The translations under genes and the position numbers were made by a program. Positions 30,335 through 53,519 of a stretch of DNA of 64,000 bases are shown one piece after another. The stretch comes from Gemmatales bacterium. GTDB lineage: Bacteria; Planctomycetota; Planctomycetia; Gemmatales; HRBIN36. The notes under the pieces were generated by a model. It was given only the letters and a program-made list of their open reading frames with translations. It made no database searches and had not been told where the DNA came from. How positions within the stretch are numbered: the stretch's first letter is position 1; the number at the start of each line of letters is the position of its first letter. The DNA lies in assembly GCA_035430005.1 (NCBI GenBank), contig DAOMFV010000012.1, positions 591 through 64,590 on the forward strand, in the 5' to 3' direction.

Positions 30335-30371
30335 TAATGCACCTCGTCCGCATCTACTTGAATCACTCTTG

Positions 30372-30413
30372 TCTAACAAACCACATGAAATCTCTAACAA
30401 ACCACATGAAATC
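30372..30413 (+). repeat. perfect 21-bp tandem duplication (x2)
   Basis: TCTAACAAACCACATGAAATC occurs at 30372-30392 and again at 30393-30413. It duplicates an in-frame ATG (30385 and 30406). Confidence 0.95.
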
Positions 30414-31785: not shown

Positions 31786-31790
31786 GTATT

Positions 31791-31848
31791 CTCCCCCCAC
31801 CCTTTTCTCTCAGTTCCCCTCGGAAGAGAAAAGGGCTGGGGTGAGGGG
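31791..31848. repeat. PAL-B variant
   Basis: CCCTTTTCTCT (31800-31810) pairs with AGAGAAAAGGG (31825-31835), followed by CTGGGGTGAGGGG. Confidence 0.7.
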
Positions 31849-31886
31849 ATACTTGATGCTAAGTAATTCCTCAGAAGTCATTAGGA

Positions 31887-31933
31887 GGGCCAGACATTCC
31901 TGTCTGTGCCAGCCAGACAGGAATGTCTGGCCC
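31887..31933. repeat. 20-bp perfect-stem hairpin in the MFP-RND spacer
   Basis: GGGCCAGACATTCCTGTCTG (31887-31906) pairs with CAGACAGGAATGTCTGGCCC (31914-31933) around a 7-nt loop. Confidence 0.9.
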
Positions 31934-31999
31934 ACCAACCTAATAATTCTGCAAGAGCACTTATTTCTTTCCACTTAGAATAATCAAAAGGCTGTTACA

Positions 32000-34900: not shown

Positions 34901-35512
34901 ACCGTGGCCGAGGCCAAGCTCAAAGTAGAGCCGATGTTGAAGGCTCCTTATCGTGCTGAGTGGTCGGGCGAGTTTCAGGAAATGGAAGAAGCTGAGGCCC
35001 GCCTGGCCAAGACCTTCCTGGTTTCATTGGCTCTGATCGCTTTGCTCATTTACATGGCATTCCGCTCATTCCTCGATGCTGCGGTGGTCTTTGGCAACGT
35101 CCTGGCGATGGGGATCGGAGGAGTCTGGGCACTCAAGCTGGCGGGGCTCAATCTCAACATCTCGGCTGCGGTGGGCTTTATTTCGATCCTGGGTGTCGCA
35201 GTGATGAATGGCTTGCTGCTGGTGTCGTCCTTCAACCGGCTGCGGTCGCAAGGAGTCGAATTGAACGAAGCCTTGATACAGGGCACCCGGTCTTTGATTC
35301 GGCCTATCGTCATGACAGCGCTGGCTGCGATTCTTGGCCTCTTGCCTGCTGCCTTTTCGACCAAGATTGGATCGCAATCGCAGCGCCCCCTGGCTGTCGT
35401 CGTGGTGGGCGGGATGACCTTCACCCTGATCGCCCTGAACATTGTGCCGGTGCTCTACAGCTTCTATGGCAAACGCAAGCCGAATGCCTCAGCCGGCGAT
35501 ATGGGGCACTAG
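32000..35512 (+). CDS. RND efflux permease, CzcA/CusA-like
   Basis: 1170 aa with a 12-TM RND layout. The N-terminus (LANPLIVCLLAITLFVLGGYAF..VNIEAYPDPAPAIIEV) is typical of the heavy-metal-efflux RND class. The start codon is GTG. Confidence 0.9.
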   Translation: MVRQLIAWSLANPLIVCLLAITLFVLGGYAFTAVNIEAYPDPAPAIIEVVAQYPGASAEEIERLVTIPLEVALAGMPGLESCRSKSLFGLAHLRNQFSYARDYEQAKQDVINRLAMATLPNGVSPQISPASPIGEILRYTLKNPRDAHGQPLYTINDLKALQDYTIQRELLRVPRIAGVTAAGGMTKRYEVQPDPVRLNRYGISLSQLQTALGNANTNGSGDNVTQGAMNIVVRTLGLFGQGQDPQQQVLGMKDPVTAARYLRDEEARRCIEIRQTVVASNNNVPIRVDQLVDGGPLLNSEGQPNVDNRELVKRGVVVSNQTRQGRVSITKPRLDANEKPVLNEQGKPIWDDEDDVVQGIVLLRKGQESLPALRDLLKKVEELNQPGRLLPGVEIVPFYNRTDLINRTTETVHENLLVGMALVSVILLMFLGNVRATIIVALNIPLALLFAFGVLYARNKSANLLSIGAVDFGIIVDSTVIIVESIFTALTADSLNHLTIEDKIKQACGRVERSLFFATVVMVCALLPLFTMKGPEGQIFGPMADTYAFSLAGALLLALTVSPVLCFLLLRRLKPRKENLLVRALQAFFVLQLRLLLTVRWITLALFLGLLSMTAAVLYDTGREFMPELEEGNMMIRGTFPVNVSLDEVTRYAREFRAGLQQFGELAVIVPAIGRPDDGTDPTGYYNMETFIPLLPDDKWPVIEKLGRKHTKAELVDDINQYLDERFPGVDWDISQIIRDNVMEALSGVKGENSIKIFGPDLNTLEETAMKMKEVLQNIKGVDNPGVFRTQGQSNLELPVDRNKCARWNVSVADVQSTVQAAVGAKAVTQMQEGGKSFDISIRWPERLRKDETAILQITVPVSNQVSSNNQLTQNGTLVSSAATGLSTSGTNIPAPVITGSTLDSAQVSPLNPSRRLVDLVTPQPGQSAKPGDPLSYLRPGASTIYRESGQRLIAVKFGVRERDLASTVAEAKLKVEPMLKAPYRAEWSGEFQEMEEAEARLAKTFLVSLALIALLIYMAFRSFLDAAVVFGNVLAMGIGGVWALKLAGLNLNISAAVGFISILGVAVMNGLLLVSSFNRLRSQGVELNEALIQGTRSLIRPIVMTALAAILGLLPAAFSTKIGSQSQRPLAVVVVGGMTFTLIALNIVPVLYSFYGKRKPNASAGDMGH

Positions 35513-35522
35513 GCTTTCTACC

Positions 35523-36971
35523 CTATTCCGGCTCTTCCTGTGAAATGACGTTGGAACGCTCTACGGTGATGTTCAGCGAACGGAGTTTCTGTCGCAACGT
35601 GGATCGTGTGATCCCCAAAAGTTCTGCTGCACGCAGTTGATTGCCCCGAGTATGTTGCAGTACCCCCGGCAGGAGTTGTCGTTCCATGACAGCCAGGCAT
35701 TCGTCATAGATGTCACGGGACCCCGATTCGAGACGCTCGGCGATGAAGCGATTCCAATCGAAGGTGGATGACGATGATCCTGCCTCTTCAAATGACGGCA
35801 CACCGATGAGCACGGGAAGGAACTCGGGCAGCAACACGGTTCCTGACATCTGTAGCACAGCCTGCTTCAAGACGCTTTGAAGTTCACGGACATTGCCCGG
35901 CCAATGGTATTTGCGCAAGACAAGCCGGGTCTCGGTCGGGATGACCGGCACTTCCCGCTTAATCTCCTGGGCGAAGCGCTGAATGCAATAATCGGTGAGA
36001 AGATCGAGGTCGTCGCCCCGTTCCCGCAGGGGTGGCACACGAATCGAGAAAACATTGAGTCGATAATAGAGATCGGACCGAAACTGCCCGGCAGCCATGC
36101 GCTTATCGAGGTCAGCGTTGGTGGCAGCCAGGACACGCACATCGACCTGGATGGTATCGGTTCCGCCTACCCGCTCAAAGCACCGTTCTTGGAGCACTCG
36201 CAGCAGCTTGACCTGGGCTGATACTGTCATCTCGCCGATTTCATCCAGCAGCAACGTGCCGCCGGTGCATTGTTCAAACTTGCCGATACGGCGGCGGTCG
36301 GCTCCGGTGAACGCTCCCTTTTCGTGACCAAACAGTTCACTTTCGATCAGGCTGTCTGGAATGGCCCCACAGTTGATGGCGACGAATGGTTTCTCCTTCC
36401 GCTGGCTGTGCTGGTAGATGGCCCGAGCGATGAGTTCCTTGCCGGTGCCACTTTCGCCAAGGATAAGGACGGTCTCGTCGGTGGAAGCGACCCGACCGAT
36501 GGCCTTGTAGACTTCCTGCATGGTGGGACAGCGGCCGATCAAGGCGTCGCCTTCGATCTTTCCATTAGTGTCGTTTGTTTCGGAAAGCAGTGCCGGAACC
36601 GTCATGAGTCTGCTGCTGGCGCAGGCTCGTGACACTACGTCTTGCAGGCGGCTGTACTCCACTGGCTTAAGTAGATAGTCGTAGGCACCACGCTTGATGG
36701 CTTCGATGGCCAGGTCCGCGGTGCCATGCCCGGTGATAAGAATGATGGGCACACGGGCATCGAACTGCTTCAGACGGTCAAATCCATTGAGGCCCGCCGC
36801 ATCGGGTAGATTCAGATCAAGGACGATGACATCAGGCTTGTCTTTCGTCAAAGCCTTGAGAGCATCCTGAATGTTGACTGCTTCCTGTACCGCATACTCC
36901 GGAGCATGAAAGGCCCGGCGAAACGCATGGCGGATGGCAGCTTCGTCATCAACAATCAACAGGCTATTCAT
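35523..36971 (-). CDS. sigma54-dependent response regulator (NtrC/AtoC type: REC + AAA+ + Fis HTH)
   Basis: Receiver domain (LLIVDDEAAIR, DVIVLDLNLPD), Walker A motif GESGTGKE, the GAFTGA motif (EKGAFTGA), and a C-terminal HTH (AAELLGITRSTLRQKL). Confidence 0.9.
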   Translation of the reverse strand: MNSLLIVDDEAAIRHAFRRAFHAPEYAVQEAVNIQDALKALTKDKPDVIVLDLNLPDAAGLNGFDRLKQFDARVPIILITGHGTADLAIEAIKRGAYDYLLKPVEYSRLQDVVSRACASSRLMTVPALLSETNDTNGKIEGDALIGRCPTMQEVYKAIGRVASTDETVLILGESGTGKELIARAIYQHSQRKEKPFVAINCGAIPDSLIESELFGHEKGAFTGADRRRIGKFEQCTGGTLLLDEIGEMTVSAQVKLLRVLQERCFERVGGTDTIQVDVRVLAATNADLDKRMAAGQFRSDLYYRLNVFSIRVPPLRERGDDLDLLTDYCIQRFAQEIKREVPVIPTETRLVLRKYHWPGNVRELQSVLKQAVLQMSGTVLLPEFLPVLIGVPSFEEAGSSSSTFDWNRFIAERLESGSRDIYDECLAVMERQLLPGVLQHTRGNQLRAAELLGITRSTLRQKLRSLNITVERSNVISQEEPE

Positions 36972-36976
36972 CTCAG

Positions 36977-38422
36977 TTACCGTGGGCTGGAGACTGTACT
37001 CAGCTTAGCAGAAGGGAGTCGAATCTGAAAGCACGCTCCGCCCGCTTCTCGATTGCTTCCCTGCAGCGTGCCCCCGTGTTCGTTGATAATTCTCTGAGAA
37101 ACGACCAGCCCCAGGCCTATGCCGGTCTCCTTGCTCGTGACGAAGGGCTGAAACAACTTCACCTGAATATCAGGGGGGATTCCCTTGCCGGTATCTTCCA
37201 CCTTGCATTCCACCGCATCGGTGGTGGGGCTGCTTATCGTCAAAGTGAGCGTCCCACCCGTCGGCATGGCATCAATGGAGTTCAGGAAAAGGTTGACAAA
37301 GACCTGTCGTAATTGCAGTCCATCCACCGAGAGAGTAATCGGGTCGGCGGGAAACCGGGTTACCACCTGGACCTGCTGCTGATCTGCCTTGCCTCGGATC
37401 AATTGCAGGCCTTCCGTGGCGACATCTGCCAGGTTAACCATGCTTCGTTCCAGCCTGGGAGGGCGAGCATAGTCGAGGAAGGTTTGGATTGATTGCTCGA
37501 TACGCCTGATCTCCGATTCCATCAACTGAAGGTCATCTTTCGAGAGGCCGGCATTGGTGGAGTCATGCTGGGCGCACTGCACCAGCAGCTTGACGGAGGT
37601 CAGTGGATTGCGAATCTCATGGGCGATGCCCGAGGCTAGTTGGCCCACGGAAGCAAGCTGTTCAGCGCGACGAACCTCGCGCTCGCGCTGCTGAAGTTTC
37701 TCGACGACATTTTCGACCTGTACCACCAGGCTTTGAGAGAGTTCCTGCAGCCCCTGGGGAGATTCGACAACTTCAGCGACCGGACTTTCCTGGTTGAGTT
37801 TATCGGAAGCCCCCTGCACCCGGATGAGCAACTGATCGAGGTTGAACCGCAGGCTGCGAGCCAGACCGTAGCCGAACACCAGGCCGGCGAGGGAACCCAT
37901 GCCACCAACTATGGCCAGCCCCCAGGCCATGTGCCTGAGCGTGGTGCGGTGCTTGGCTTCGGAGTCGCGCAATTGATCGCCATTGAAATTACGCAGCGCC
38001 TGGACGGAGGGGATCATCTTATTCTGCAGGATGGCAATGGCTTCGATCTGCTTTCGGGCTATTGCCTCCTTACTAGTCCAGATTACACGATATTGATTCA
38101 AATCGGTTCGAAGCTTGCCGGCGATGACCTGCTCTTCGGGCTTGTCAGCAAACTCTTCGATCTCTTTTTGAAAGAGCTGTACCTTTTCCCAAAGAGCCTC
38201 GACTTGCTCGGCGCCACGCTGATGCAATGCCAGCAAATCGTTGAGGGTGACTTCAAGATTGAGGGCAGCTCCTCGGCTGCCGATGTTCTCGCCGAGGATT
38301 TCCGCGCTGATCGATTGCTGCGAGTAAAGATATGCCGCCAGTGAGAAACAGAACACCAGCATGACGAGGCTGGTGCCCACAGCGAAGAAAAACAAGCGGG
38401 TGGGATAGTAGCGAAGGGACAT
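36977..38422 (-). CDS. sensor histidine kinase (2 TM, HAMP, HisKA, HATPase_c)
   Basis: H-box HEIRNPLTS, N-box and G-box motifs (DTGKGI, GIGLGL). It lies 5 nt upstream of the response regulator gene. The start is placed at ATG 38422 (MSLRYYP...). Confidence 0.85.
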   Translation of the reverse strand: MSLRYYPTRLFFFAVGTSLVMLVFCFSLAAYLYSQQSISAEILGENIGSRGAALNLEVTLNDLLALHQRGAEQVEALWEKVQLFQKEIEEFADKPEEQVIAGKLRTDLNQYRVIWTSKEAIARKQIEAIAILQNKMIPSVQALRNFNGDQLRDSEAKHRTTLRHMAWGLAIVGGMGSLAGLVFGYGLARSLRFNLDQLLIRVQGASDKLNQESPVAEVVESPQGLQELSQSLVVQVENVVEKLQQREREVRRAEQLASVGQLASGIAHEIRNPLTSVKLLVQCAQHDSTNAGLSKDDLQLMESEIRRIEQSIQTFLDYARPPRLERSMVNLADVATEGLQLIRGKADQQQVQVVTRFPADPITLSVDGLQLRQVFVNLFLNSIDAMPTGGTLTLTISSPTTDAVECKVEDTGKGIPPDIQVKLFQPFVTSKETGIGLGLVVSQRIINEHGGTLQGSNREAGGACFQIRLPSAKLSTVSSPR

Positions 38423-38621
38423 GGGGAGTTCCACTGGCTCAGTAGTTAAGTTACAGCTTCGGAGTTCGATGGTGGGAGGTTTTTTCGCGTTGGATCGTCT
38501 TCTATGGCATGATGTACGGCTTCCCACGACATAACTTCCCCTTGCCCCATTTTCCCCATTGCTTTAAGCTACGCCGACGAACTTATCCGGTTTCATCTCT
38601 CCAGGGCGAAAGGATGTGCCC

Positions 38622-42086: not shown

Positions 42087-45000
42087 ATGCCACAGGACGC
42101 AAATCAACCCAAAGGCTGGCGGGGCGATGGCAACCAGCCTAAACGAACCGCAAAGTATGGTTGGAAGCCGAAATCGGCGGGCATTGAGAAATCTCTTTTA
42201 ATGCGTCGTGGCACGCAGGTGAGTTTGGCGCTGAGTGTGCTCATGTGCATGGCAGTGATGGTATTCTTGTACCTCCTGTGGAGACCCCCTGAGCAAACCA
42301 GCATCATAATTGTTGCCGCCAGGCCTTCTGCAGATGCCACCGATTTGCGGGCTCCGCTGGACTTCCATGGTTGGGAGGGTTGTCAGAAATTGATGCGCTA
42401 TGTGAAAGACGCTAAGGATATCAAAGCTGCAGAAATTCTGCCCAAAGACAAAGACCACTTATCCTTATCAGATCAGAACAGCCTTCTTGAACTAGTCACC
42501 CTGGTGCAGAACAGCAAAACCAGCAGAGTGATTGTCTATTTCGGCCTCTTTGGTTTCGCTGGAGAACATGGCCCCTGTTTATTTGGCTCACATGGCGAGA
42601 TCATCCAGGTGAGCAAAATCATTGAGGAATTGGGAAAAGTTGCCGGGAAAGGTAAGGATATCGTCCTCCTTTTCGATGCTGCCCGCTTGCCAGTCGCCCC
42701 GGAACTCGGAGTTTTGCGCAACGACTTTGTGAGTTCACTTAAGGAGAATTTGGGTGAAAAGATCAAAAATACGAACCATCTTGCGGTGATCTGTAGCAGC
42801 AGCCCTGAAGAGCGTGCCTGGAACAGCGATGAATGGGGTTGTTCTGTTTTCCTTCAGCAGGTGATTGAAGCGTTACGTGGAAAGGCCAAAGGCAAGAGTG
42901 ACGATATTACGCTGATTCAATTCTTTAAGACGGTCGAGGAGGAAACCAAACGTTGGACCCAACTGCGCTTTGTGAGCCCGCAAATCCCGACTCTATTCTG
43001 TTCTGATGAAATGAAATCTGAAAAGAGTCCCGTCATTGTCACCCAGCAAAATAAGCATGAACCACTGAAAGACACCGAAGCCTCTAACGCACCCGGGTAC
43101 GACTGGGTAGTCAATGCTGACACGCATTTGGAAAAGCTCAAGAAACATTACATTGACACCTCCAATCTGGCCAAAGCCAGGCCGCACCCGGCTGTCTATA
43201 CTCCGGTTTCCTGGCGGCGGTATCGTGAGTTGCTGGTCAGACTGGAGCAAGCTGTTCGTATGAATGGCATCATGGCATCAGACACAGCAAGAAAACTGGA
43301 CGATGAATTAATCACATTGGAACAGTTCATCAGCAAATCGCAAGCTCTAGGCTTTGAAAAAGTTAGGGATACCAACACCATCTGGCCCATCATACTGGCT
43401 GGCAAAGCAGAGGAAGTTGAAACAGCAGACGTGTTCGCAGGGAATACGGCAAATTTGGCTCAGGAAACGTTCCACAAACCCTTCAACAGCGCTGATCCAC
43501 CACCTCCAGGCGCCGAACTACACCTGGCGTACAAGCTGGCGCAGTTCTGGGATAAAGGTTCTAAGCCATTACCAGATACCTTGAAACTCGCCATCGAGAC
43601 CCGCCAACTGGCGGAACGGGCCGCTCTCGGCTGCCCTGCGAAACCTATGGAGTATTTCTACACCGAACGGCTTTGGGAATGGATACAACCTGAACTCGAG
43701 AAACTGGATGCCAGGCGGCGCATCGCTGAAGACTATCTCTTCAGTGATGAACATCAAAAAGCTGTCGAGGACTTGAATGCGTTGAAACTGGAATATCAGA
43801 CTCTGATCAACAAATGTCTGCCGCTGCAAAAAGCCTGGGATGTGTATCATTATGCCGTCTCTGAAGCCTCCTTCCTCACGAAGTGGCATGTCTTTTGCGC
43901 GGAAGAATTGCAAGACAAAGACAAAGCAACGCGTCTCCAGGAGCTTTGGCGGGAGGTTCATCTATTGGAAGAAAACTTGCGGACAATCAAATTGGAAGAA
44001 TACTTCCGGACAGTCAATCGGGATTCTACTGCCAAAGAGATGGAGGAGATGGTGAAAAGATGCCGGGAGATCAATCTGTTGATGAAAACAGAGATGAAGG
44101 ACTTCCTTATTGCGGCCAACGATAAAATCGAAAAGGCGGCTGGTTCGCAAATTCCCCGGCATCAACTTGAGCTGCTGCTGTCGTTCCCCTGGCCGATTCC
44201 GAGAGAGAGCGATGCTGACAATAGACCGGTTGCAGATCGAGTGCTCGCCATCAACAAAGCTCGCGGAGCTAGCAGAGATTTGCACAAGACCGAAGGCCCA
44301 AGCAATATTACCCCCGATCCGAAAGTCTTGGACAAGATCGTTCAGTATCGAGGCGAATTGATTAAATCGATGATGCAGAAGGTCAATCCACGTTCCGATT
44401 CATTCCCCTTCGATGGTGGCCAAAAACAAGCGAAGGAGTTGGGCAAAGAGATAGAAGCATTTTGGAGGATGTTGGCTGTTGAAGGAGCCAAAGAACAAAA
44501 GCTTGATCTTGCAGATGTCAATTCTCGATATGCCTTGGCATTTACTGCAGGAACACCTGTCGAAGTCGCCCTGAACCAGCGCGATGCAAGGTATCGAACG
44601 CTCCTGAGAGAGCACGCCAAGCGTATTTGTCGGGATCACTGGTACGATGAGACGACGGCCTATTTCAAAGCAACTGCTGATAAGTACCTGAATAACGAGG
44701 GCGTTTTTTTTATTGATCCAGATAAGGACAATGACCCGGAGCTAAGGGACTTGTTGAAAACGGACCAACTGAAATGGAAACCCTCTACGTTAGAGAGGGC
44801 TTGGACGAGTGAGCCGAGCCGGGAATGGCCAATCGAAGTAGAGAATCCACTCAAGAAGATCGAAGGTCGGATTACGCTCTGGGCTGAAAACGGTACCGAG
44901 ACGGCAATCATGTTGAAAGAGGGGGGGGAGCGACGACTCTCGATGCCGCTGAACGAAGCCAGGCGAACGCTCACTTTGGAAGCCAAGGATGCCAGCGGCG

Positions 45001-47009
45001 TGGAAAAGAGGAAAATCGATCTGGCGTTTGCACCCAAAGCTTATTTCCGGGGGCAGAAGCCCTATGAGAGTATGGGTTTTTCCCTCAATCGCCAGCCTAG
45101 CTTGATTGTGACGGAACATCCCATGAAGGAAGGCGGGACGTTTACGTTGACCAAGGCAAAGGACTTACGTTTGGGATTGGGGCATTTGGCGATTGTGTTG
45201 GATTATTCACATAGTATGAGAGTGAGTGGTGAGGCTACCAAATACAACAAGGACGGCAAGGCTATCGACTGGAATTGGCGGCGAGAGGATAGTCGTATTC
45301 GGCAAGCCATTGATGGATTGGACAAACTGCTGAAAACTTTGTCTGATGATGTAAATGAAATTGATCTAAGTATTCATGTTTTCAGTGAGGAGAACGAAAA
45401 GACGAAAGCAATTCAAGAAAAGATTAGTTTCAAAGAAGGAGATCCGTTACGAAGTGACAAAATCCAGGATTTGACGCAGCAGATAGAAATTACTGAAATG
45501 TTCATTGGCATACTTAAGAAACGAGGTGGCAAGCGAGTATTAGTACCTCATGATAATAAGATGCCAGAACTTACTTTGGATGAATTTGGTATGCAACTAC
45601 AGCGACTAACACCCTATTCAAGTACTCCTCTGCTAAAATCGATGATTGGGGCCGTCAAACCTGTAAGAAATAAGCAGAACGTTACCTTACTTGTTTTGAC
45701 TGATGGTGCCGATACATCGCTTGGAGAACTGGAAAAAACAGACGATGCCAAGATTGATACTCTCAGGAAAAGCTTTGAGAATGAGTTTTTCAATAGCGGA
45801 TTATCAATCAACATTATTCTGTTCACCACTGATAAAGACGAAAAGGCTATTGCACATAGGCAGTTCAAAGAATTCAAGAGCGACACAAGTTCGTGCGTAG
45901 TAAAGGAAGCTATTGATTCGCAAGAGCTTCTGATAGCCTTGAAAGATTCATTCAAGGCAAGAATGGAAGTTTTTGATAAGAGTAATCAAGCCATACATTC
46001 AAAGGAAAAGGATTCTCCACCATATTTTACTGCCCAAAAGATAAACTCAACAATAGGAGAACTGTCTATTTCTCCTCTACTTACAACTGGCACCTATGAC
46101 TCCCAAGTTCGTGTTGATAAGCAGCTGTTATCTTTTTTCCCAGGTGATCACTTATTTATCAAGTTGGAAAATGCGCCTCGAGGAGTGAAGTACAAACGAG
46201 AATTGTTCAAAGACGTGCTACCATTCAGCCAACCCGGACCATCTGAACGCTACATTCCTGGAGAAATCGACGGCAAGAAGACGCTGTGGCATTTGACTGT
46301 GGCGGAGAATCTCGCTCCTGGACACTTGAGGCTAACACTCGAACACGAAAAACATCGAGTGGAATCCTCAGAAGGAACTCTACCTGTTCTCAGCATGTAC
46401 CGACCGGAATTCGTCTGGTGGGATGTCAAGGCTGTGGGAACGAGCGGAAAAGAGCAGCCAGCTCAAGGCACGATTCACATCACCAAACTGCCACATTACT
46501 ACGCGCCCGGTTGGGATATCGATCAAATAGGAACCAAGAAGGATGAGAAGCTCAGGTTTCAGGCATGGGTTAGTGAAAATATTATTCAAAAGCAGCACCT
46601 CCATTCTTTTGTTCGTAGTGAATTGAAAAAGAACAACGATTGGCAAAAAATCAACAACCAGCTAATATCTGTTTCGTGCGAAACGCATGATCTCACGAAT
46701 GGTTCTCAACCGATCTCGAAGCAGGTTCCTTGCCTAGTGGTACGTTATCGACTAAGCAGTTCTGAACAACGTGTCTGGTTCGAAAAGCCTACTAGTAGCG
46801 TGAATCGATCGGATCACTATTACTTTCCTGATGCTCAGACGATGACAGTATTCTTTTCTCCGTTTAACCCCGAAGGCGATCCCGACGAGAAACTCTCGTT
46901 GGAAATGATCGACCTGGACAACTTCAAGCAACTCAAAAAGCCCGTCGTTGACACCAAAATTGACGTGTTCAAGAACTGGCAAGGTCCTCCGAATCTCGAC
47001 AGCAAGTAA
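42087..47009 (+). CDS. giant single-pass membrane protein: basic N-tail, TM, caspase-like (C14-fold) module lacking the catalytic Cys, long helical region, vWA/MIDAS domain, beta-rich C-terminus
   Basis: 1640-aa uninterrupted ORF with a GAGGAA Shine-Dalgarno sequence 8 nt upstream. The TM is at about aa 45-65. The caspase-like strands are VIVYFG..AGEHG, IVLLFDAAR and LAVICSSSPEERAWNSD..CSVFLQQVIEALRG. The vWA motifs are VLDYSHSM (DxSxS), SSTPL and LLVLTDGADT. Confidence 0.85.
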   Translation: MPQDANQPKGWRGDGNQPKRTAKYGWKPKSAGIEKSLLMRRGTQVSLALSVLMCMAVMVFLYLLWRPPEQTSIIIVAARPSADATDLRAPLDFHGWEGCQKLMRYVKDAKDIKAAEILPKDKDHLSLSDQNSLLELVTLVQNSKTSRVIVYFGLFGFAGEHGPCLFGSHGEIIQVSKIIEELGKVAGKGKDIVLLFDAARLPVAPELGVLRNDFVSSLKENLGEKIKNTNHLAVICSSSPEERAWNSDEWGCSVFLQQVIEALRGKAKGKSDDITLIQFFKTVEEETKRWTQLRFVSPQIPTLFCSDEMKSEKSPVIVTQQNKHEPLKDTEASNAPGYDWVVNADTHLEKLKKHYIDTSNLAKARPHPAVYTPVSWRRYRELLVRLEQAVRMNGIMASDTARKLDDELITLEQFISKSQALGFEKVRDTNTIWPIILAGKAEEVETADVFAGNTANLAQETFHKPFNSADPPPPGAELHLAYKLAQFWDKGSKPLPDTLKLAIETRQLAERAALGCPAKPMEYFYTERLWEWIQPELEKLDARRRIAEDYLFSDEHQKAVEDLNALKLEYQTLINKCLPLQKAWDVYHYAVSEASFLTKWHVFCAEELQDKDKATRLQELWREVHLLEENLRTIKLEEYFRTVNRDSTAKEMEEMVKRCREINLLMKTEMKDFLIAANDKIEKAAGSQIPRHQLELLLSFPWPIPRESDADNRPVADRVLAINKARGASRDLHKTEGPSNITPDPKVLDKIVQYRGELIKSMMQKVNPRSDSFPFDGGQKQAKELGKEIEAFWRMLAVEGAKEQKLDLADVNSRYALAFTAGTPVEVALNQRDARYRTLLREHAKRICRDHWYDETTAYFKATADKYLNNEGVFFIDPDKDNDPELRDLLKTDQLKWKPSTLERAWTSEPSREWPIEVENPLKKIEGRITLWAENGTETAIMLKEGGERRLSMPLNEARRTLTLEAKDASGVEKRKIDLAFAPKAYFRGQKPYESMGFSLNRQPSLIVTEHPMKEGGTFTLTKAKDLRLGLGHLAIVLDYSHSMRVSGEATKYNKDGKAIDWNWRREDSRIRQAIDGLDKLLKTLSDDVNEIDLSIHVFSEENEKTKAIQEKISFKEGDPLRSDKIQDLTQQIEITEMFIGILKKRGGKRVLVPHDNKMPELTLDEFGMQLQRLTPYSSTPLLKSMIGAVKPVRNKQNVTLLVLTDGADTSLGELEKTDDAKIDTLRKSFENEFFNSGLSINIILFTTDKDEKAIAHRQFKEFKSDTSSCVVKEAIDSQELLIALKDSFKARMEVFDKSNQAIHSKEKDSPPYFTAQKINSTIGELSISPLLTTGTYDSQVRVDKQLLSFFPGDHLFIKLENAPRGVKYKRELFKDVLPFSQPGPSERYIPGEIDGKKTLWHLTVAENLAPGHLRLTLEHEKHRVESSEGTLPVLSMYRPEFVWWDVKAVGTSGKEQPAQGTIHITKLPHYYAPGWDIDQIGTKKDEKLRFQAWVSENIIQKQHLHSFVRSELKKNNDWQKINNQLISVSCETHDLTNGSQPISKQVPCLVVRYRLSSSEQRVWFEKPTSSVNRSDHYYFPDAQTMTVFFSPFNPEGDPDEKLSLEMIDLDNFKQLKKPVVDTKIDVFKNWQGPPNLDSK

Positions 47010-47029
47010 TACCCCAGGAACCGCCCAAC

Positions 47030-49846
47030 ATGTCTGAAGCGAAGCCTGTTCCTTCTGGTCCTGAACGCCGTTGGCGGAAGGAGCAACCTTCGGAGTTCAA
47101 GAGCATCGAGAGGCGCGGACGGATGGCGATCTTGGCCATCGGCGCGGTCGTGCTGGCCGGTATCCTCATCGGAAGTTTATTCATGTGGGGAAGCGCTAAG
47201 CAAACCCATCTCGATTGCTACCCCTATGGCAGATACGACAACGAACTACGGGCACCGGCCCCCTGGTTCTTTCACGACGCAAACCAACTCTATCAGACCT
47301 TTGGCGTTCTGGAGACCAGAAACCCTCTTACTAAGTTGCAGCACGACTTCCTCATCAGTGATCTGAAGAGTCGTAAAGAAGAAACCATCATCATCTATAT
47401 CGCAGGTCGGGGCATTGCGCGGAATAACAAGGTCTACGTACTGCCCAGCGACGCAACGGACGTTGAGTCCAGTTGGATTTCGCTTGCTTCCATTATCGAG
47501 GCAATTACAGAAAGCCCATCAAAACACAAACTGTTGCTGTTAGACATCGCCGGCACTGCGCCCAATCTCTACACCGGGCCATTGCAGGACAGCATCGCCA
47601 ATAAGATTGATGACTATCTCGCCAAAACGTCGCCTCCCCCTTTCCCCATGCTGACCTCTTGCTCTAGAGATGAAACCAGCAACGTCATGGCTGTCACGGG
47701 CAGCAGCGTCTTTGGTCATTACCTGAATCAGGGGCTACAGGGATTAGCGAATGGCTTTGTCGACGGTCATAAAGATCAAGAAATCACCGTCAAGGAACTG
47801 GTGAAGTTTGTCAACACACGAGTCAATCGCTGGACTTGCCTGAACCTGGGACGAACGCAAACCCCCAAGTGTTACGGCCCAGAGGATATTGATTTCCTGG
47901 TAGTCCATCGACATAAAATAGCAAACTGGCTGGAAGAGCTACCCAAGCCTGCTGAAACGCCGGCACCACCCGATGAAAGCAACTTGAAAGACAAGGAGAA
48001 GCAGGAGAATAACGAGAAAAGAGAGAAAGAGCAAAAGGCGAAAGATCAGGAGAAGCTTAGATTCGTCTTCCCGAAAGAACTGGAAGAAGGCTGGAAGGTT
48101 TACGAAGTAGCCAAGAACACGCCTGAGTACGCGCTGCGCCTGGCCACGTTGAATCGTTTTGCGCATCATCTCCGCCAGTACGAGGGAACGGTGATGTTGT
48201 TCAATAACAGCCCGGAGACCGAGCGAACCCTGAACAAGCGATTGCTTACGGATTTGAGTAAACATGTTACCGATGTCACTTCAGACTTATCCAAAATTGA
48301 ACTCCAAACACGCCTGAAACAGCTTCCTAACAGCATCACTGCCCTGTGGCCCCGAAGCTGGCTGCAACTACGAACCAGGGCACCGAGAGAGATTCCCACC
48401 GAACTGGTAGATGGCTTTAACAATCTCTATTCTTCGTGGCCAAGCACTTCTGCAGGCAGCGTAAAAGCTGATCCGACGGAGAGGGAAAAAGCGTTTCTTG
48501 ATCTCGTCAGCGGCAAGAAGGACGAGAAGAACCCAGCTCCCTCTCGCTATGAGGAAGCTCTGTTTCTTTGCTGGGATAAGCTTTGTGCCGAGGATACTCG
48601 CCTCACGCTGGATCTGTTGAAACGCTCAGTGGATCTGATGACGAAGCTTCTTCCCGATGCCGTGCGCAACAAACTTCATGAGCGATGCAACGAACTGGAT
48701 ATGCTCAGATGGATTATCGAACAAAGTGAAGGAGACTCGGAATGGAACTTTTCCGGCAAAGAGTATGAGACAAACAGGGAACTTGGCCAGTATTACTTCG
48801 ACATGATTCACCAATGGCTGATGGCGGAGTATCTGTCTGAGCGATGCGCGAACGGCTATCTGCCAGACGGCGTCGGGTTTGCCAGCCGACAAGCTTCATT
48901 GGAATCAGTTAAGAAGCAGCATCAACGAATAGTCCAACAACTGCTGGAACTCAGAAATAGGAAGAGTTATCGGCCACTCTCCTCAGAAATGGTCGAGTTT
49001 GCCAAGCAATTCAAGTCTTTGTCCGGTGACTACACTAATTGCCTGAAAGACATGGATCAGGAGCGGGCTGCCCTGGATGCCTGGTGGGCCTCCGTGGCGG
49101 TCCTCCAGGCAACCGCAGAAATGATGGTCAGTGAAGATAATTCCGAGCGTTGGCAGTTGTGGGATACGCTGGCGAATAAGACCCTCCTGTTGAAGCGCCT
49201 TCTGAAAGCGACGTCTCTGGATCCATCGGCCCGGACCGACGTTATCAAGGCCCGCGACAAACTGGTTAATTCCTTCAACGACCTGAAGGATAACTTGCTG
49301 AAGAGTGGCAACCAGGAGGGAGTGAAATGGAAATCGTGCCGAGGCATTGAACGAGTGTTGAAATGCGGATTGCTCACCACAGCCGACCGAAGAAAGCTGC
49401 ATGAGTTACTCATGAAGCTACAGGAGGAGATTCACATCAGCACGGTGAATATCGAAATTCGAGATGATAAAGGCACAGAACCGCCCACTAAGCCAGAGGC
49501 ATCGCCTATGAACTCCGCTCTTCAGGCGGATCGACGAGCTGTCATTTCACGGCAATTGTTATTGCTGGGAGGGTCGACCAGGATGGAAAAAGCCAACACG
49601 ACACCCTCGGAAGAGGAGCTGCGAAATGCCTGGACCGAGGAAATGCCCGAGCTCCTTAAGGTCGCCCGCGGCAAAGAGAACTGGCTCGACGCGGCTCGCA
49701 TCGAAGCGGTATTGCCACAAACTAATACAACTGATGCTCTGTTGCAATGGCGACTCAAATCCAGCAAAACGTATTACCTATGGTTGGAAGAGCGACAAAA
49801 GCAGCTGGAAGCCCGGCAATTGCATGTTCCAGACCAACGGAAATAA
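47030..49846 (+). CDS. large single-pass membrane protein: TM + pseudo-caspase module (His->Arg, Cys->Ala) + charged linker + helical region
   Basis: 938-aa ORF starting 20 nt after the previous stop. The caspase-fold pattern is TIIIYIAGRGIARNNKVYVLPSDA, KLLLLDIAGTAP, MLTSCSRDETSNV and SSVFGHYLNQGLQGLA...ITVKELVKFVNTRV...QTPKCYG. Confidence 0.85.
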   Translation: MSEAKPVPSGPERRWRKEQPSEFKSIERRGRMAILAIGAVVLAGILIGSLFMWGSAKQTHLDCYPYGRYDNELRAPAPWFFHDANQLYQTFGVLETRNPLTKLQHDFLISDLKSRKEETIIIYIAGRGIARNNKVYVLPSDATDVESSWISLASIIEAITESPSKHKLLLLDIAGTAPNLYTGPLQDSIANKIDDYLAKTSPPPFPMLTSCSRDETSNVMAVTGSSVFGHYLNQGLQGLANGFVDGHKDQEITVKELVKFVNTRVNRWTCLNLGRTQTPKCYGPEDIDFLVVHRHKIANWLEELPKPAETPAPPDESNLKDKEKQENNEKREKEQKAKDQEKLRFVFPKELEEGWKVYEVAKNTPEYALRLATLNRFAHHLRQYEGTVMLFNNSPETERTLNKRLLTDLSKHVTDVTSDLSKIELQTRLKQLPNSITALWPRSWLQLRTRAPREIPTELVDGFNNLYSSWPSTSAGSVKADPTEREKAFLDLVSGKKDEKNPAPSRYEEALFLCWDKLCAEDTRLTLDLLKRSVDLMTKLLPDAVRNKLHERCNELDMLRWIIEQSEGDSEWNFSGKEYETNRELGQYYFDMIHQWLMAEYLSERCANGYLPDGVGFASRQASLESVKKQHQRIVQQLLELRNRKSYRPLSSEMVEFAKQFKSLSGDYTNCLKDMDQERAALDAWWASVAVLQATAEMMVSEDNSERWQLWDTLANKTLLLKRLLKATSLDPSARTDVIKARDKLVNSFNDLKDNLLKSGNQEGVKWKSCRGIERVLKCGLLTTADRRKLHELLMKLQEEIHISTVNIEIRDDKGTEPPTKPEASPMNSALQADRRAVISRQLLLLGGSTRMEKANTTPSEEELRNAWTEEMPELLKVARGKENWLDAARIEAVLPQTNTTDALLQWRLKSSKTYYLWLEERQKQLEARQLHVPDQRK

Positions 49847-49932
49847 ATTGACACTGGCCGCGTTTGCCGCAAGAATAGCCGGTGTCACCATTCGATTTGC
49901 TCGCTAGGCCAGATTGTTTCAAGGATCACGTT

Positions 49933-51762
49933 ATGTCTTCTCAAGTCAAGGTTCTTATCTCGCTGGCGCTGCTGTTGTGGAGCGGCCCTTCTTTTCTGTC
50001 AGCTCAAGAACGGTTAACGGGGCCGAAATTGGCTTTCGGTACCGACTCGGACGCGGAACGAGCGAGTGCCGAGATGAAGTCTTTTGACCTGCGGCCCAAT
50101 GTCAAATTGCCTTTTTATGTCTTCATCAAGAACTCCGAAATTGATCCAAGGACTATGGTCTTGACTATCACCTGTCTGCAAATGCAGGAACCGACGAAGC
50201 AAGCCGAATCCAAAAAGCTGACTATCGAGGACCTGAAGATTCCGGGCAAAGGTAAAAACGACCTAAAAGATAAGATCCTGGCCGTCCCCTTTCCCAAACT
50301 CGATGACAAGGGAATTAACCTGGGCCTTGCTCAGCAACTGATCTTTAAGCTCGAAGATTCTGAGCGAAGAGTGAAGCTCGATGAAAAAACGATCCAGCTG
50401 AACGTCATGAAAACCGAAGAATATCTTTCGTTCGATCCGTCGCCGGAAATTAACAGTAAAGGGCAACTGGTGGTCAGCGTGAAGCCTACGGCGAAATTCC
50501 GCGGGCCGCCCTGCCAGTTGGAACTTGACTGGTCACGACTGAAGAACCTGGTGCCCGATCAATCCCCCAGCGGCGCCATGAAAGGCGAGGTAGACGATCA
50601 GGAAAACAAGAAAGCCACTCTCTCCATCAATAAATTGCGATTCAACAAGGATAGCAGCGATCATGGCTTCTTCTCCATCAAAGTAGATGACGTGGCGCGA
50701 GCCAGGACCTGGCTGGCTACTGACATGGAATCCACCGCCCGGCTCGATACGCTCCCGGCCAATACGCTCCGCATCGTCACAGAGAAGTATTTCCTGTCGG
50801 ATGCCAAGGACAAGCTCATGGTTTGCTTTGAAGTGGATAACCCGTCAGACCCCGGCAACACTAAACTGGATTTCGGAAGAGATTTATCGGAAACCGGTAA
50901 GTTTGTTGAGTATCATCGTCCCCACTATCGCAACGAAAGTGTTTCCCTACAGACAGATGAGAAAGAGAAAAACGCACTCTTCTTGAAGCCGAACGTCTCT
51001 GATTGGAAGCTGGAGATCTCTTCAGAAGGCCTGGCGGGAACGGCCTTGTTTCGAGCCAGTCTGATTACTCCCAATGATCGTTTTGATAAAGAGACAAAGA
51101 CGATCTTCAGCAAGGCAGTGGCCAAGATCGACCCAATTACCATCCGGGACAGCAAAAACCAGGTCAAAGAGCCGCAGGCGACTTTTCTTCCCGGCGAGAT
51201 GATCAACATCGAGGTGAAGGCACGATGTCCTGAAACTGAGATAACGGAAGTGATGGTGTACGCCGGCGAAGCGGTGCCCGTCCGGGCGGACAACAACAAA
51301 CTCTACGATACCACCAAGCTTATCAGGGCGACATTCAATAATGGAGCCTGGTCAGCTGGCGTGGAAGTGCCCGATAAGAAAGGCAGTTACAAACTGTTCG
51401 CGATCGCCTGGAATGGCGTCGGGCTTCCCTCGACGGAACGACGGGAACTGAAAGTCGTCGACCCGGTACCCGTCACGGATAAGGAGAAATTAGGCAGCAT
51501 CAAGGGAAGGGTAGTCGGCGGGACTGATGAGGTTTCGCAGAAAGAAGTGCCGGTAACCCTCGAAGACAACAATAAGAAGGTTATCAAATCGACGAAGACG
51601 GATGATAAGGGCGCTTTTGAATTCAAGGATGTTCCTGCCGGCAGCTATCTCATTCAGTGCAAACGAGGCACAGGGATAGCAACGGTCAAAGACAAGGTTG
51701 ATGTGACTGTTGAAAACGGCAAAGAAACCATATTGAAGAAGCCTTTGAATCTACACCGATAA
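49933..51762 (+). CDS. secreted beta-rich protein with C-terminal carboxypeptidase-regulatory-like (CarboxypepD_reg) domain
   Basis: Signal peptide MSSQVKVLISLALLLWSGPSFLSAQE, with AAGGAT 6 nt upstream of ATG 49933. The C-terminus GSIKGRVVGG...TKTDDKGAFEFKDVPAGSYLIQC fits the CarboxypepD_reg fold. Confidence 0.8.
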   Translation: MSSQVKVLISLALLLWSGPSFLSAQERLTGPKLAFGTDSDAERASAEMKSFDLRPNVKLPFYVFIKNSEIDPRTMVLTITCLQMQEPTKQAESKKLTIEDLKIPGKGKNDLKDKILAVPFPKLDDKGINLGLAQQLIFKLEDSERRVKLDEKTIQLNVMKTEEYLSFDPSPEINSKGQLVVSVKPTAKFRGPPCQLELDWSRLKNLVPDQSPSGAMKGEVDDQENKKATLSINKLRFNKDSSDHGFFSIKVDDVARARTWLATDMESTARLDTLPANTLRIVTEKYFLSDAKDKLMVCFEVDNPSDPGNTKLDFGRDLSETGKFVEYHRPHYRNESVSLQTDEKEKNALFLKPNVSDWKLEISSEGLAGTALFRASLITPNDRFDKETKTIFSKAVAKIDPITIRDSKNQVKEPQATFLPGEMINIEVKARCPETEITEVMVYAGEAVPVRADNNKLYDTTKLIRATFNNGAWSAGVEVPDKKGSYKLFAIAWNGVGLPSTERRELKVVDPVPVTDKEKLGSIKGRVVGGTDEVSQKEVPVTLEDNNKKVIKSTKTDDKGAFEFKDVPAGSYLIQCKRGTGIATVKDKVDVTVENGKETILKKPLNLHR

Positions 51763-52000: not shown

Positions 52001-52408
52001 ATGCCGTTCTCTATTCCCTGGTTGTCGGTTATGGCAGCGGCGATCGCCTACTTTGTGCTGGGCGCGCTGTGGTATGGTTACTTCGGCGATGCCTGGCTGA
52101 AAGAACTGCATAAACGTAAAGAACAACTCGATACCAAAGACCCTGCCCCCTATCTGGTAGCGGCTCTGGGGGCCGTGCTGAACGCGACAGCTACCGCTGC
52201 CGTTCTCGGCTGGGTGATGCCTTCTACGCAAACCACGCTTCTGGCAGTGTTCATCACCACGCTCTTTCTGGGTGGAGCTGTAGTGGCTGCCGGCGCGGCC
52301 AAACATTATGCTTTTTCGGGCTGGTCGTGGAGACTTTACGCCATCGATATGGGGCATGATCTGGCAGGCTTCTTCCTCATGAGCCTGATCATCGCACTAC
52401 TGAAGTAG
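52001..52408 (+). CDS. DUF1761-family membrane protein
   Basis: N-terminus WLSVMAAAIAYFVLGALWYGYFGDAWLK, four TM segments, and a length of about 135 aa. Confidence 0.6.
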   Translation: MPFSIPWLSVMAAAIAYFVLGALWYGYFGDAWLKELHKRKEQLDTKDPAPYLVAALGAVLNATATAAVLGWVMPSTQTTLLAVFITTLFLGGAVVAAGAAKHYAFSGWSWRLYAIDMGHDLAGFFLMSLIIALLK

Positions 52409-53519
52409 CGACTTCAGGAATCGCTCCACCCCTGACGGGCCTGCCTTTCCACTGCACGAGAATCATCATCGCCATCCCGGCGGCAAATAACCCGATGCTG
52501 ATTGTCTGCGAGATGGTGAAGTTGCCTACATACTCAGGATTATCCAACCGCAGTTGTTCAATGAGGTAGCGGTTGATGGAGTAGGTCATCATAAGCAGGG
52601 CGATGACCGCCCCTTCTCTGCGTCGCAACGGATAGTATGCCGAAAGCAGCAGGCACAGGATGATTCCATCCAGCGCCATGTAGAGTTGCGTTGGCAACAG
52701 GGGCAGGCTCGGCGGGGGCACAAACGTCAGATTCTTCGTTTCTCCATGGCGTTTGACGGTGATCGTCACTTCTTCGTAAGGTCTGACAGCGATCAATGCC
52801 TGGTTGATGGCATCTCGTGTCAGCGTGGCGTGCCCATTGATCGATTCAACGAGATCGTCTTTTTGCAGTCCAGCCTTCTCAGCCGAAGAACCAAAGTCAA
52901 CAGCAACGATGGTGCAGTCATCCTTGATATCCATGCCCAGTTGCATACCAAATGTTGTCTGCCAGCCTCGCAGCCAGACGACTTCATGATAAGGATTGCT
53001 ATTGGCAGGAAATTGCACAGTCATCGAACTGGGCACATGCGCGGGGTCAGCGACATCGCCATAACAGCAGCCATTGAGGAAGCAGCCTATCCGACCGAAA
53101 GCAATGCCCAAGGCAATGGAAGGCGCCAACCAGTCGGCGATTTGCAGCGTTCGCACCTTGGCCGGCTTTGCTACATAGCGATACGCCAGCAGGTACCCCA
53201 GAAGACCCCCTGGAATCGCACCATAGAGCACCAGGCCCCCTTCCCAGATCTTGACGAACTGCTGAATGCCTTCCCAGAGGTTTATGGGCGGTTTCTGATC
53301 GACAAACATTGAGAGCAACCGAGCACCAATGACACCGCCAACGAAGATATACAGCCCCACGTCCCACGGTATGGTAGAGAAATACCCTTCCCGCTTCGCC
53401 CGTCGTCCCGCGAGCCAAGCCGATGCCACGAAGGCGATGATCAGCATCACGCCGAAGCCAAAGATGGGCATTCTGGCATCGCCGAAGGGCAGGGGGATGT
53501 AGAAGAGGACTTGTCGCAT
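52389..53519 (-). CDS. lgt: prolipoprotein diacylglyceryl transferase with an inserted PDZ-like domain
   Basis: Lgt signature FGRIGCFLNGCCYG and an Lgt-like N-terminus. An extra ~90-aa segment (AVDFGSSAEKAGLQKDDLVESINGH...VTITVKRHGE) looks PDZ-like. The gene overlaps the convergent DUF1761 gene by 20 nt. Confidence 0.85.
   Translation of the reverse strand: MRQVLFYIPLPFGDARMPIFGFGVMLIIAFVASAWLAGRRAKREGYFSTIPWDVGLYIFVGGVIGARLLSMFVDQKPPINLWEGIQQFVKIWEGGLVLYGAIPGGLLGYLLAYRYVAKPAKVRTLQIADWLAPSIALGIAFGRIGCFLNGCCYGDVADPAHVPSSMTVQFPANSNPYHEVVWLRGWQTTFGMQLGMDIKDDCTIVAVDFGSSAEKAGLQKDDLVESINGHATLTRDAINQALIAVRPYEEVTITVKRHGETKNLTFVPPPSLPLLPTQLYMALDGIILCLLLSAYYPLRRREGAVIALLMMTYSINRYLIEQLRLDNPEYVGNFTISQTISIGLFAAGMAMMILVQWKGRPVRGGAIPEVATSVVR

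Follow-up and report, generated by a model that had tools for sequence, protein, structure and literature searches.

The 64,000-nucleotide window that we analyzed, from contig DAOMFV010000012.1 of a Gemmatales bacterium (assembly GCA_035430005.1), contains three closely spaced genes on the forward strand, which we will call ORF1, ORF2, and ORF3. ORF2 is a membrane protein with a domain of the caspase fold that lacks the catalytic residues of caspases; ORF1 is its paralog; and ORF3 is secreted. Here we describe the fold and its inactivation, the conservation of the genes, and their association with the system for type VI secretion (T6SS), in which they probably have a structural role.

A preliminary description of the window, made from the sequence alone, placed a caspase-like domain at 47222–47884, which corresponds to residues 65–285 of ORF2. 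This span lies within an α/β domain (residues 59–300) in the AlphaFold2 model. Translated in frame +1, 47030–49846 contains exact copies of all six peptides that were quoted as caspase-like: ETIIIYIAGRGIARNNKVYVLPSDA (residues 118–142; nucleotides 47381–47455), WISLAS...DIAGTAP (residues 149–178), PMLTSCSRDETSNV (residues 206–219), GSSVFGHYLNQGLQGLANG (residues 224–242), QEITVKELVKFVNTRV (residues 250–265), and QTPKCYG (residues 277–283).

The resemblance to caspases is far beyond chance, as judged from a curated family model, from structure comparison, and from a profile of ORF2's own family. ORF2 matches NF047832 of NCBIfam (caspase, EACC1-associated type) with E = 1.2e-7 over residues 101–266, although its score of 31.4 bits is far below the cut-off of 140 bits. 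The AlphaFold2 model of the full-length protein, from an alignment of 111 sequences, has a pLDDT of 84.6 and a pTM of 0.85, and the model of the domain by itself has a pLDDT of 89.6 and a pTM of 0.90. When the domain model was compared to the PDB with Foldseek, the top 50 matches all had the caspase fold (probability of 1.00, E values of 1e-8 to 3e-6, TMq of 0.5–0.64). These matches include MALT1, which is the top match (E = 1e-8), caspases-3/6/7/8/9/11, and metacaspase 9 from Arabidopsis. With the full-length model, the top 37 matches all had the caspase fold as well (MALT1, Sf-caspase-1, and Dronc). Finally, a hidden Markov model (HMM) of the ORF2 family, built from 153 domains, matches two genuine Peptidase_C14 proteins of related genomes (L016 and L018) with scores of 95 and 71 bits. 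These two proteins match PF00656 with 92 and 85 bits and have the expected motifs (SGHG/AGHG and DAC). PF00656 from Pfam matches neither full-length ORF2 nor the isolated domain, and neither phmmer nor hmmsearch with the family profile found a significant match among the sequences in the PDB.

In caspases, the catalytic His and Cys each lie just after a strand of the fold. In the AlphaFold2 model of ORF2, these two positions are occupied by Arg127, after the strand at 119–125, and by Ala174, after the strand at 166–172. The alignment with the family HMM agrees: column 127 coincides with the His in AGHG/SGHG, and column 174 with the Cys in DAC. The preliminary description had proposed just these replacements, and the translation (codons CGG and GCC) and the profile alignment both bear them out. 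Compared to Peptidase_C14, then, ORF2 has the fold and lacks the catalytic His, the catalytic Cys, and a score above the curated cut-off. By its predicted structure, ORF2 carries a real caspase fold without the catalytic dyad.

The rest of ORF2 (residues ~320–938) is predicted to be all-alpha. This helical domain of ~620 residues has no recognizable relatives outside of the ORF2 family: it has no matches in Pfam, sequence and profile searches against the PDB were negative, and all of its Foldseek matches have E > 0.4.

Because the N-terminal tail is basic, and because in other genomes the signal-bearing ORF3 is fused to the C-terminus of ORF2's homologs (see below), we infer that ORF2 is inserted with its N-terminus in the cytoplasm and with its bulk in the periplasm. 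By the positive-inside rule, the nine Lys or Arg among the first 31 residues favor this orientation. The N-terminus (MSEAKP) is shared with ORF2's closest homolog (P0002, 62% identity). Within the tail, Trp15 (codon at 47072–47074) is at least 90% conserved in the family alignment (A1). The tail of ORF1 also contains basic motifs with Trp (KGWRG and YGWKPK). These motifs are candidates for docking to a cytoplasmic partner.

Table 1. Coordinates of the three genes and of features within ORF2. Positions are those of the window.
Feature	Position	Strand	Description	Source
ORF1	42087–47009	+	1640 aa; paralog of ORF2 over residues ~17–867 (transmembrane helix, pseudo-caspase domain, helical domain)	
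ORF2	47030–49846	+	938 aa; bitopic in the membrane; pseudo-caspase domain, then a long helical domain	ORF list, AlphaFold2
ORF2 N-terminal tail, residues 1–27	47030–47110	+	short and basic, presumably cytoplasmic; contains the near-invariant Trp15	
ORF2 single transmembrane helix, residues 28–53	47111–47188	+	helix across a hydrophobic stretch	AlphaFold2/DSSP
ORF2 pseudo-caspase (Peptidase_C14-fold) domain, residues 59–300	47204–47929	+	presumably periplasmic	
ORF2 Arg127 codon CGG	47408–47410	+	catalytic His position; AGRG aligned with AGHG/SGHG	
ORF2 Ala174 codon GCC	47549–47551	+	catalytic Cys position; LLLLDIAG aligned with LLLVDACR	
ORF2 Cys211 codon	47660–47662	+	SCS..E/Q.S motif; near-invariant (144/153)	
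ORF2 all-alpha domain, residues ~320–938	47987–49843	+	predicted secondary structure	AlphaFold2
ORF3	49882–51762	+	626 aa; secreted; C-terminal CarboxypepD_reg (PF13620)	

The claim that ORF1 and ORF2 are adjacent inactivated paralogs also holds. BLASTP aligns them with E = 3e-9 over 288 residues. The profile of the ORF2 family matches residues 17–414 and 467–867 of ORF1, and the ORF1-type proteins of related bacteria match almost the entire profile of 910 positions. So, the paralogy runs from the transmembrane helix across the pseudo-caspase domain and through the helical domain. (For the helical parts, BLASTP was negative, and only the family profile detects the relationship.) ORF1 is also substituted at both positions of the dyad (His→Phe and Cys→Ala). 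A fragment of ORF1 (42270–43050) passes the threshold of PF00656, with 24.8 bits versus 21.4. Of the motif LRAP...F..A.QL that the two proteins were said to share, LRAP is in both of them, but the remainder is loose (CQKL in ORF1 versus ANQL in ORF2). Beyond the paralogous part, ORF1 has an extra ~770 amino acids at its C-terminus. We considered that ORF3 might be homologous to this extension, but BLASTP gave no support.

In at least 43 related genomes, an ORF1-type gene is followed by an ORF2-type gene, ~5 kb apart and on the same strand. This conserved tandem of paralogs is compatible with the heteromeric and non-catalytic assembly that the preliminary description suggested. ORF3 begins with a signal sequence of the Sec type. 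Many relatives have it as a C-terminal fusion to the ORF2 homolog, in proteins of ~1600 amino acids. For instance, CarboxypepD_reg is found at the C-terminus of family members of 1577–1686 amino acids (P0054 and P0033); it is also found in P0004.

To find the family, we ran an exhaustive search of representative proteins with residues 55–300 of ORF2. With a threshold of E ≤ 1e-3 this gave 2148 representatives, of which 451 reached E ≤ 1e-10. (A word-indexed search of 5.8 billion proteins found only three relatives of ORF2.) In public records, members are named 'hypothetical protein [Gemmatales bacterium]' or, in one case, 'caspase domain-containing protein [Gemmataceae bacterium]'. The family is large and is centered on the Gemmatales.

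In an alignment of 153 representatives of the family, the position of the catalytic Cys is usually Ala (59) or Met (57), with Ser and Gly in 7 proteins each; Cys is found just once. The position of the catalytic His is Leu (63), His (35), Tyr (17), Phe (14), Arg (9), or Gln (6). No family member (0/153) has both catalytic residues. It had been suggested that the conservation of the residues in orthologs would distinguish an old pseudoenzyme from a recent pseudogene, and the loss of the dyad across the family points to an old pseudoenzyme. As a substitute for His, Arg is rare, and Arg127 is not conserved. As read from the alignment, the catalytic Cys was lost at or near the origin of the family, so the loss is ancient and ORF2 presumably cannot act as a cysteine protease. 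The core of the domain is strongly conserved (D83, D172, G183, C211, F228, G238, A240, W268, Q277, which is found in 153/153 proteins, and P279). These residues are kept in the active relatives as well, which implies that the domain is under structural rather than catalytic constraint.

The only member with Cys at the position of the nucleophile is P0014 (LLILDLCRP), which has Leu at the His position; its Cys may have reverted or may be a remnant. Also, we noticed a separate family of ~730 amino acids with an N-terminal zinc-ribbon (CPGC...C..C), a transmembrane helix, and a caspase-like domain (L014, L015, and L017, from the related genomes G026, G044, and G049). Pfam does not recognize this caspase-like domain, whose dyad is intact (VGHA and LDVCR). 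G049 has two tandem copies of the gene.

The ORF2 family is found in genomes that encode a T6SS. Among 151 genomes of the order, we compared the presence of the family (a match with E < 1e-30) with the presence of the sheath gene tssC (PF05943). Both were present in 77 genomes and neither in 66, while 7 had only the family and 1 had only TssC (Fisher p = 1.8e-33, uncorrected for phylogeny). All seven of the genomes with only the family are assemblies of 400 or more contigs. Within the genera g1, g7, g10, g12, and g14, the T6SS is patchy, and the presence of the family follows the same pattern. In a phylum-wide sample of 251 genomes, TssC was present in 58 and the family in 5, and all 5 of these were TssC-positive.

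The family's genes are also found within T6SS loci. In the complete genome G102, the genes run in the order tssK, tssL, a tssM of 553 amino acids, an ORF2/ORF3 fusion and an ORF1 homolog on the opposite strand, and vgrG. Next come tssB, tssA, and tssC, then four copies of hcp, and then tssE, tssF, and tssG. Genes of the family adjoin tssC or tssL and a short tssM in eight other genomes (G004, which belongs to the same genus as the window, and G009, G023, G047, G086, G118, G122, and G125). In the genome that the window comes from, the T6SS locus (tssK, tssL, a tssM of 554 amino acids, clpV, tssB, tssC, and tssF-G) is on another contig, C8.

These loci contain some other genes as well. Between clpV and tssK, the C8 locus encodes a Ser/Thr protein kinase of 1889 amino acids (L035:1461–7127) and an outer-membrane barrel of 847 amino acids that resembles TonB-dependent receptors (listed with L034:17774–19000). 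The T6SS locus of G102 encodes a protein of 564 amino acids (L024:8061–9752; G102:C1:7368060–7369754) with weak matches to both VipA/TssB and VipB/TssC, like a fused second paralog of the sheath proteins. Its gene adjoins vgrG and a gene with DUF6931. Several relatives have weak, TssC-like second copies.

Next, consider the membrane complex of these secretion systems. In 14 genomes that contain the family, TssL was always present, but the model for full-length TssM either had no match or matched only at positions ~180–370, in open reading frames of 540–700 amino acids. The short TssM proteins of G004 and G009 end directly after the third transmembrane helix and thus lack a periplasmic domain. 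TssJ (PF12790) was found in none of these 14 genomes, as compared to 9 of the 14 T6SS-positive, family-negative genomes that were tested for it. In planctomycetes of other classes that have a T6SS but not the family, TssM is encoded by open reading frames of 1182–1736 amino acids (16/16 genomes), and many of these match the model from end to end. The same relationship holds in sister families: four genomes that contain the ORF2 family (G268, G306, G340, and G373) have either no TssM or only short ones.

The sole TssM homolog in the window's own genome has 554 amino acids (C8:22775–24439, reverse strand; L034:13775–15439), with tssL and tssK directly upstream, and over its whole length it can be aligned with the short TssM of G004. 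The TssM of this T6SS, too, is without a periplasmic domain. Among the other classes, six genomes (G184, G231, G265, G339, G341, and G390) have TssM open reading frames of 1399–1736 amino acids in which only positions ~30–500 of the model match, so the periplasmic parts of these proteins are also far from the canonical IcmF domains. We considered that the helical domain of ORF2 might derive from the periplasmic domain of TssM. However, when six long TssM proteins of planctomycetes were compared to it with hhalign, the probability was below 1%, and no TssM was among the Foldseek matches.

We propose that ORF2, together with ORF1 and the secreted ORF3, is a module of the T6SS, and that it most likely supplies the part of the membrane complex that spans the periplasm. 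(We put the probability of this at roughly 60%.) The main reason to assign this role to the module is that the family's presence is complementary to the truncation of TssM and the absence of TssJ. In our proposal, ORF1 and ORF2 would insert with their N-termini in the cytoplasm, and their pseudo-caspase domains would pair with each other, as domains with the caspase fold commonly dimerize. By analogy to the dimers of caspase-8/cFLIP and of MALT1, the two dead caspase domains are probably modules for dimerization or assembly. The long helical domains would then span the periplasm, and ORF3, or the fused C-terminus that replaces it, would reach the outer membrane. On the other side, the basic tails with their conserved Trp might touch TssL, the short TssM, or the baseplate. 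The idea of a pair of inactive caspase-like proteins, as in the preliminary description, is supported but is incomplete, as it did not include the T6SS or its TssM without a periplasmic domain.

Several observations weigh against this proposal. In the window's own genome, the operon lies apart from the T6SS locus, which is on C8; it is on C12, between lpxD/lpxI and DUF1761/lgt. Shared ancestry inflates the statistics of co-occurrence. In G109 and G389, two T6SS-positive genomes whose TssM is short, the matches to the family are only weak and divergent; in G389, the match is an open reading frame of 1612 amino acids that is ~5 kb from tssM. A cytoplasmic tail of ~27 residues is short for docking to the baseplate. 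And with hhalign, Pfam, and Foldseek, we detected no homology of ORF2 to TssM or to a known protein of the membrane complex, so it is genomic context that points to a role in the T6SS. This context supports the assignment well without proving it.

The main rival to our proposal is that the module is associated with the T6SS as a periplasmic sensor or a post-translational regulator, similar to PpkA/TagQRST, with the dead caspase domain as a receptor for a ligand or peptide. An accessory regulator would fit the co-occurrence and the synteny equally well. It would also fit with the very short cytoplasmic tail of ORF2 and with the Ser/Thr kinase of 1889 amino acids in the genome's T6SS locus. Furthermore, in the PpkA/TagQRST pathway of threonine phosphorylation, PpkA has a periplasmic vWA domain, and we see a vWA-like MIDAS motif in the sequence of ORF1 (Pfam does not confirm it). 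However, such regulators are accessory and patchy, while all but one of the 78 TssC-positive genomes of the order (77) have the module. Nor would a regulator explain why the module's presence so exactly complements the loss of TssJ and of TssM's periplasmic domain. We consider this explanation to be unlikely, but it is the strongest of the alternatives.

It is less likely still that the module is an envelope scaffold that has nothing to do with the T6SS, so that the association would come from common descent and from transfer together on a single island. This would account for the operon's location in the window's genome, away from the T6SS genes and beside genes for lipid A and lipoproteins, and the lack of correction for phylogeny leaves some room for it. 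The operon (42087–51762) also has a GC content of 0.494, as compared to a mean of 0.547 for the genome, so that it ranks among the lowest 1% of 9.7-kb windows, which suggests mobility; the low GC may reflect relocation or a horizontal origin. But the family's presence and absence tracks the T6SS within at least five mixed genera, its genes are embedded among the core T6SS genes in G102, and the complementarity with TssM and TssJ extends to the sister families.

We also considered that the domain might still be a hydrolase, with another nucleophile such as Cys211. This residue is present in 144 of the 153 representatives, and Asp172, Trp268, and Gln277 are invariant or nearly so. But active homologs with an intact dyad (L014, L016, and L018) have the same Cys in their SCS/ACS motif, so Cys211 seems to have a structural role in both groups rather than to stand in for the nucleophile. 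Active C14 proteins likewise keep the other invariant residues. Also, the His position is hypervariable (L/H/Y/F/R/Q), and there is no conserved alternative for the general base nearby. Together, these observations make a cryptic hydrolase very improbable. Finally, the idea of a caspase gene that lost its activity recently, or a pseudogene in the making, has nothing in its favor beyond the two substitutions themselves and is excluded by the size of the family (451 clusters at E ≤ 1e-10) and its nearly complete loss of the catalytic Cys despite a strongly conserved structural core; besides, the frame is open over 938 codons and the homolog with 62% identity has the same AGRG and DIAG motifs.

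If ORF1–ORF3 do form the periplasm-spanning part of a T6SS, then the best functional analogy is to the Bacteroidota, which replaced TssJLM with the non-homologous TssNQOPR complex (PMC10781749). Like TssJLM and TssNQOPR, the module is found in or next to the T6SS loci of relatives, and it is membrane-anchored with large parts that are presumably periplasmic. TssNQOPR includes a vWA protein, TssR (PMC10781749), whose vWA domain might be likened, by description, to the vWA-like motif of ORF1; this is the only specific parallel that we noticed. In contrast to TssNQOPR, the module coexists with TssL and a truncated TssM, so the complex would be a hybrid, with TssJLM replaced only in part. Also, the TssNQOPR genes are reported only from within T6SS loci (PMC10781749), whereas the operon in the window's genome is outside of it. 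Tentatively, and with somewhat less than even odds, we suggest that ORF1–ORF3 are the third T6SS envelope-spanning complex to have evolved independently, after TssJLM and TssNQOPR. It would combine TssL and a cut-back TssM with two giant paralogs, whose dead caspase domains pair into a ring, and with a CarboxypepD_reg protein that reaches the outer membrane. If so, this would be the first structural use of the caspase fold in a secretion machine, and the fold would gain a new non-catalytic role. It would also show how, in a phylum whose cell envelope is unusual, unrelated parts can be used to rebuild the structure that anchors a contractile injection system in the envelope. We did not find any paper about the T6SS membrane complex of planctomycetes or about a link between pseudo-caspases and the T6SS.

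By its fold and by profile, the domain of ORF2 is homologous to the bacterial orthocaspases (Peptidase_C14; MEROPS clan CD), such as L016 and L018. They share the α/β fold of the caspase-hemoglobinase type and several motifs: ..VV.Y/H...G.G after strand 3, KLLLLD before the position of the nucleophile, SCS..Q/E.S, and QTP. L016 and L018 have signal peptides, with the caspase domain joined to Sel1 or TPR repeats, respectively, and they are likely to be extracytoplasmic, as we believe ORF2 is. Unlike them, ORF2 lacks the His-Cys dyad and the match to PF00656, and instead of the repeats it has an N-terminal transmembrane anchor and the 620-residue helical domain that is specific to its family.

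ORF2 also resembles the pseudo-orthocaspases (PMC6426788), such as SyOC of Synechocystis (PMC7889975), in that it is a conserved and presumably non-catalytic prokaryotic homolog of caspases with both residues of the dyad replaced. It falls within the broad definition of this group, but it has neither the Tyr-Ser replacement nor the association with phototrophs. The pseudo-orthocaspases that have been described are mainly from cyanobacteria or α-Proteobacteria; Tyr-Ser replaces His-Cys in them, and it has been proposed that they are linked to photosynthesis; Klemencic et al. (2019) mention neither Planctomycetes nor transmembrane forms (PMC6426788). In the ORF2 family, the replacements are different (L/H/Y/F/R for His and A/M for Cys), the hosts are Gemmatales/Gemmataceae, the proteins are giants in the membrane, and the genomic context is the T6SS. 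So far, the only link made for bacterial pseudo-caspases was a tentative one, to cyanobacterial photosynthesis. More broadly, pseudo-proteases are under-explored, and hundreds of dead proteins with the caspase fold now have a concrete and testable context. As Pfam misses the domain in ORF2, surveys of caspase homologs and surveys of T6SS components would both overlook this family.

As for eukaryotic proteins, the proposed use of the fold as a module for dimerization or scaffolding resembles that of cFLIP and of the paracaspase MALT1, which is the best structural match. Caspase-8 and cFLIP pair as a heterodimer, and the tandem of two dead paralogs recalls this. However, the identity to these proteins is just 12–16%, with no kinship in sequence beyond the fold, and ORF2 is anchored in the membrane and is presumably periplasmic.

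Some other features of the region and of the T6SS locus are worth recording. On C8, tssB, tssC, hcp, and the gene for the Ser/Thr kinase have low GC content (0.46–0.48), similar to that of the operon, while the GC of tssF, tssG, tssK, tssL, and tssM is not low. Upstream of the operon, the window encodes (at 30337–38527) an RND efflux pair, comprising an HlyD-type adaptor and an AcrB-family pump of 1170 amino acids, and, divergently, a σ54-dependent response regulator of the NtrC type paired with a histidine kinase. These genes have no evident link to ORF1–ORF3. Downstream, on the reverse strand (52389–53519), is a gene for Lgt (prolipoprotein diacylglyceryl transferase) with an inserted PDZ domain (PF17820/PF13180, residues ~198–265).

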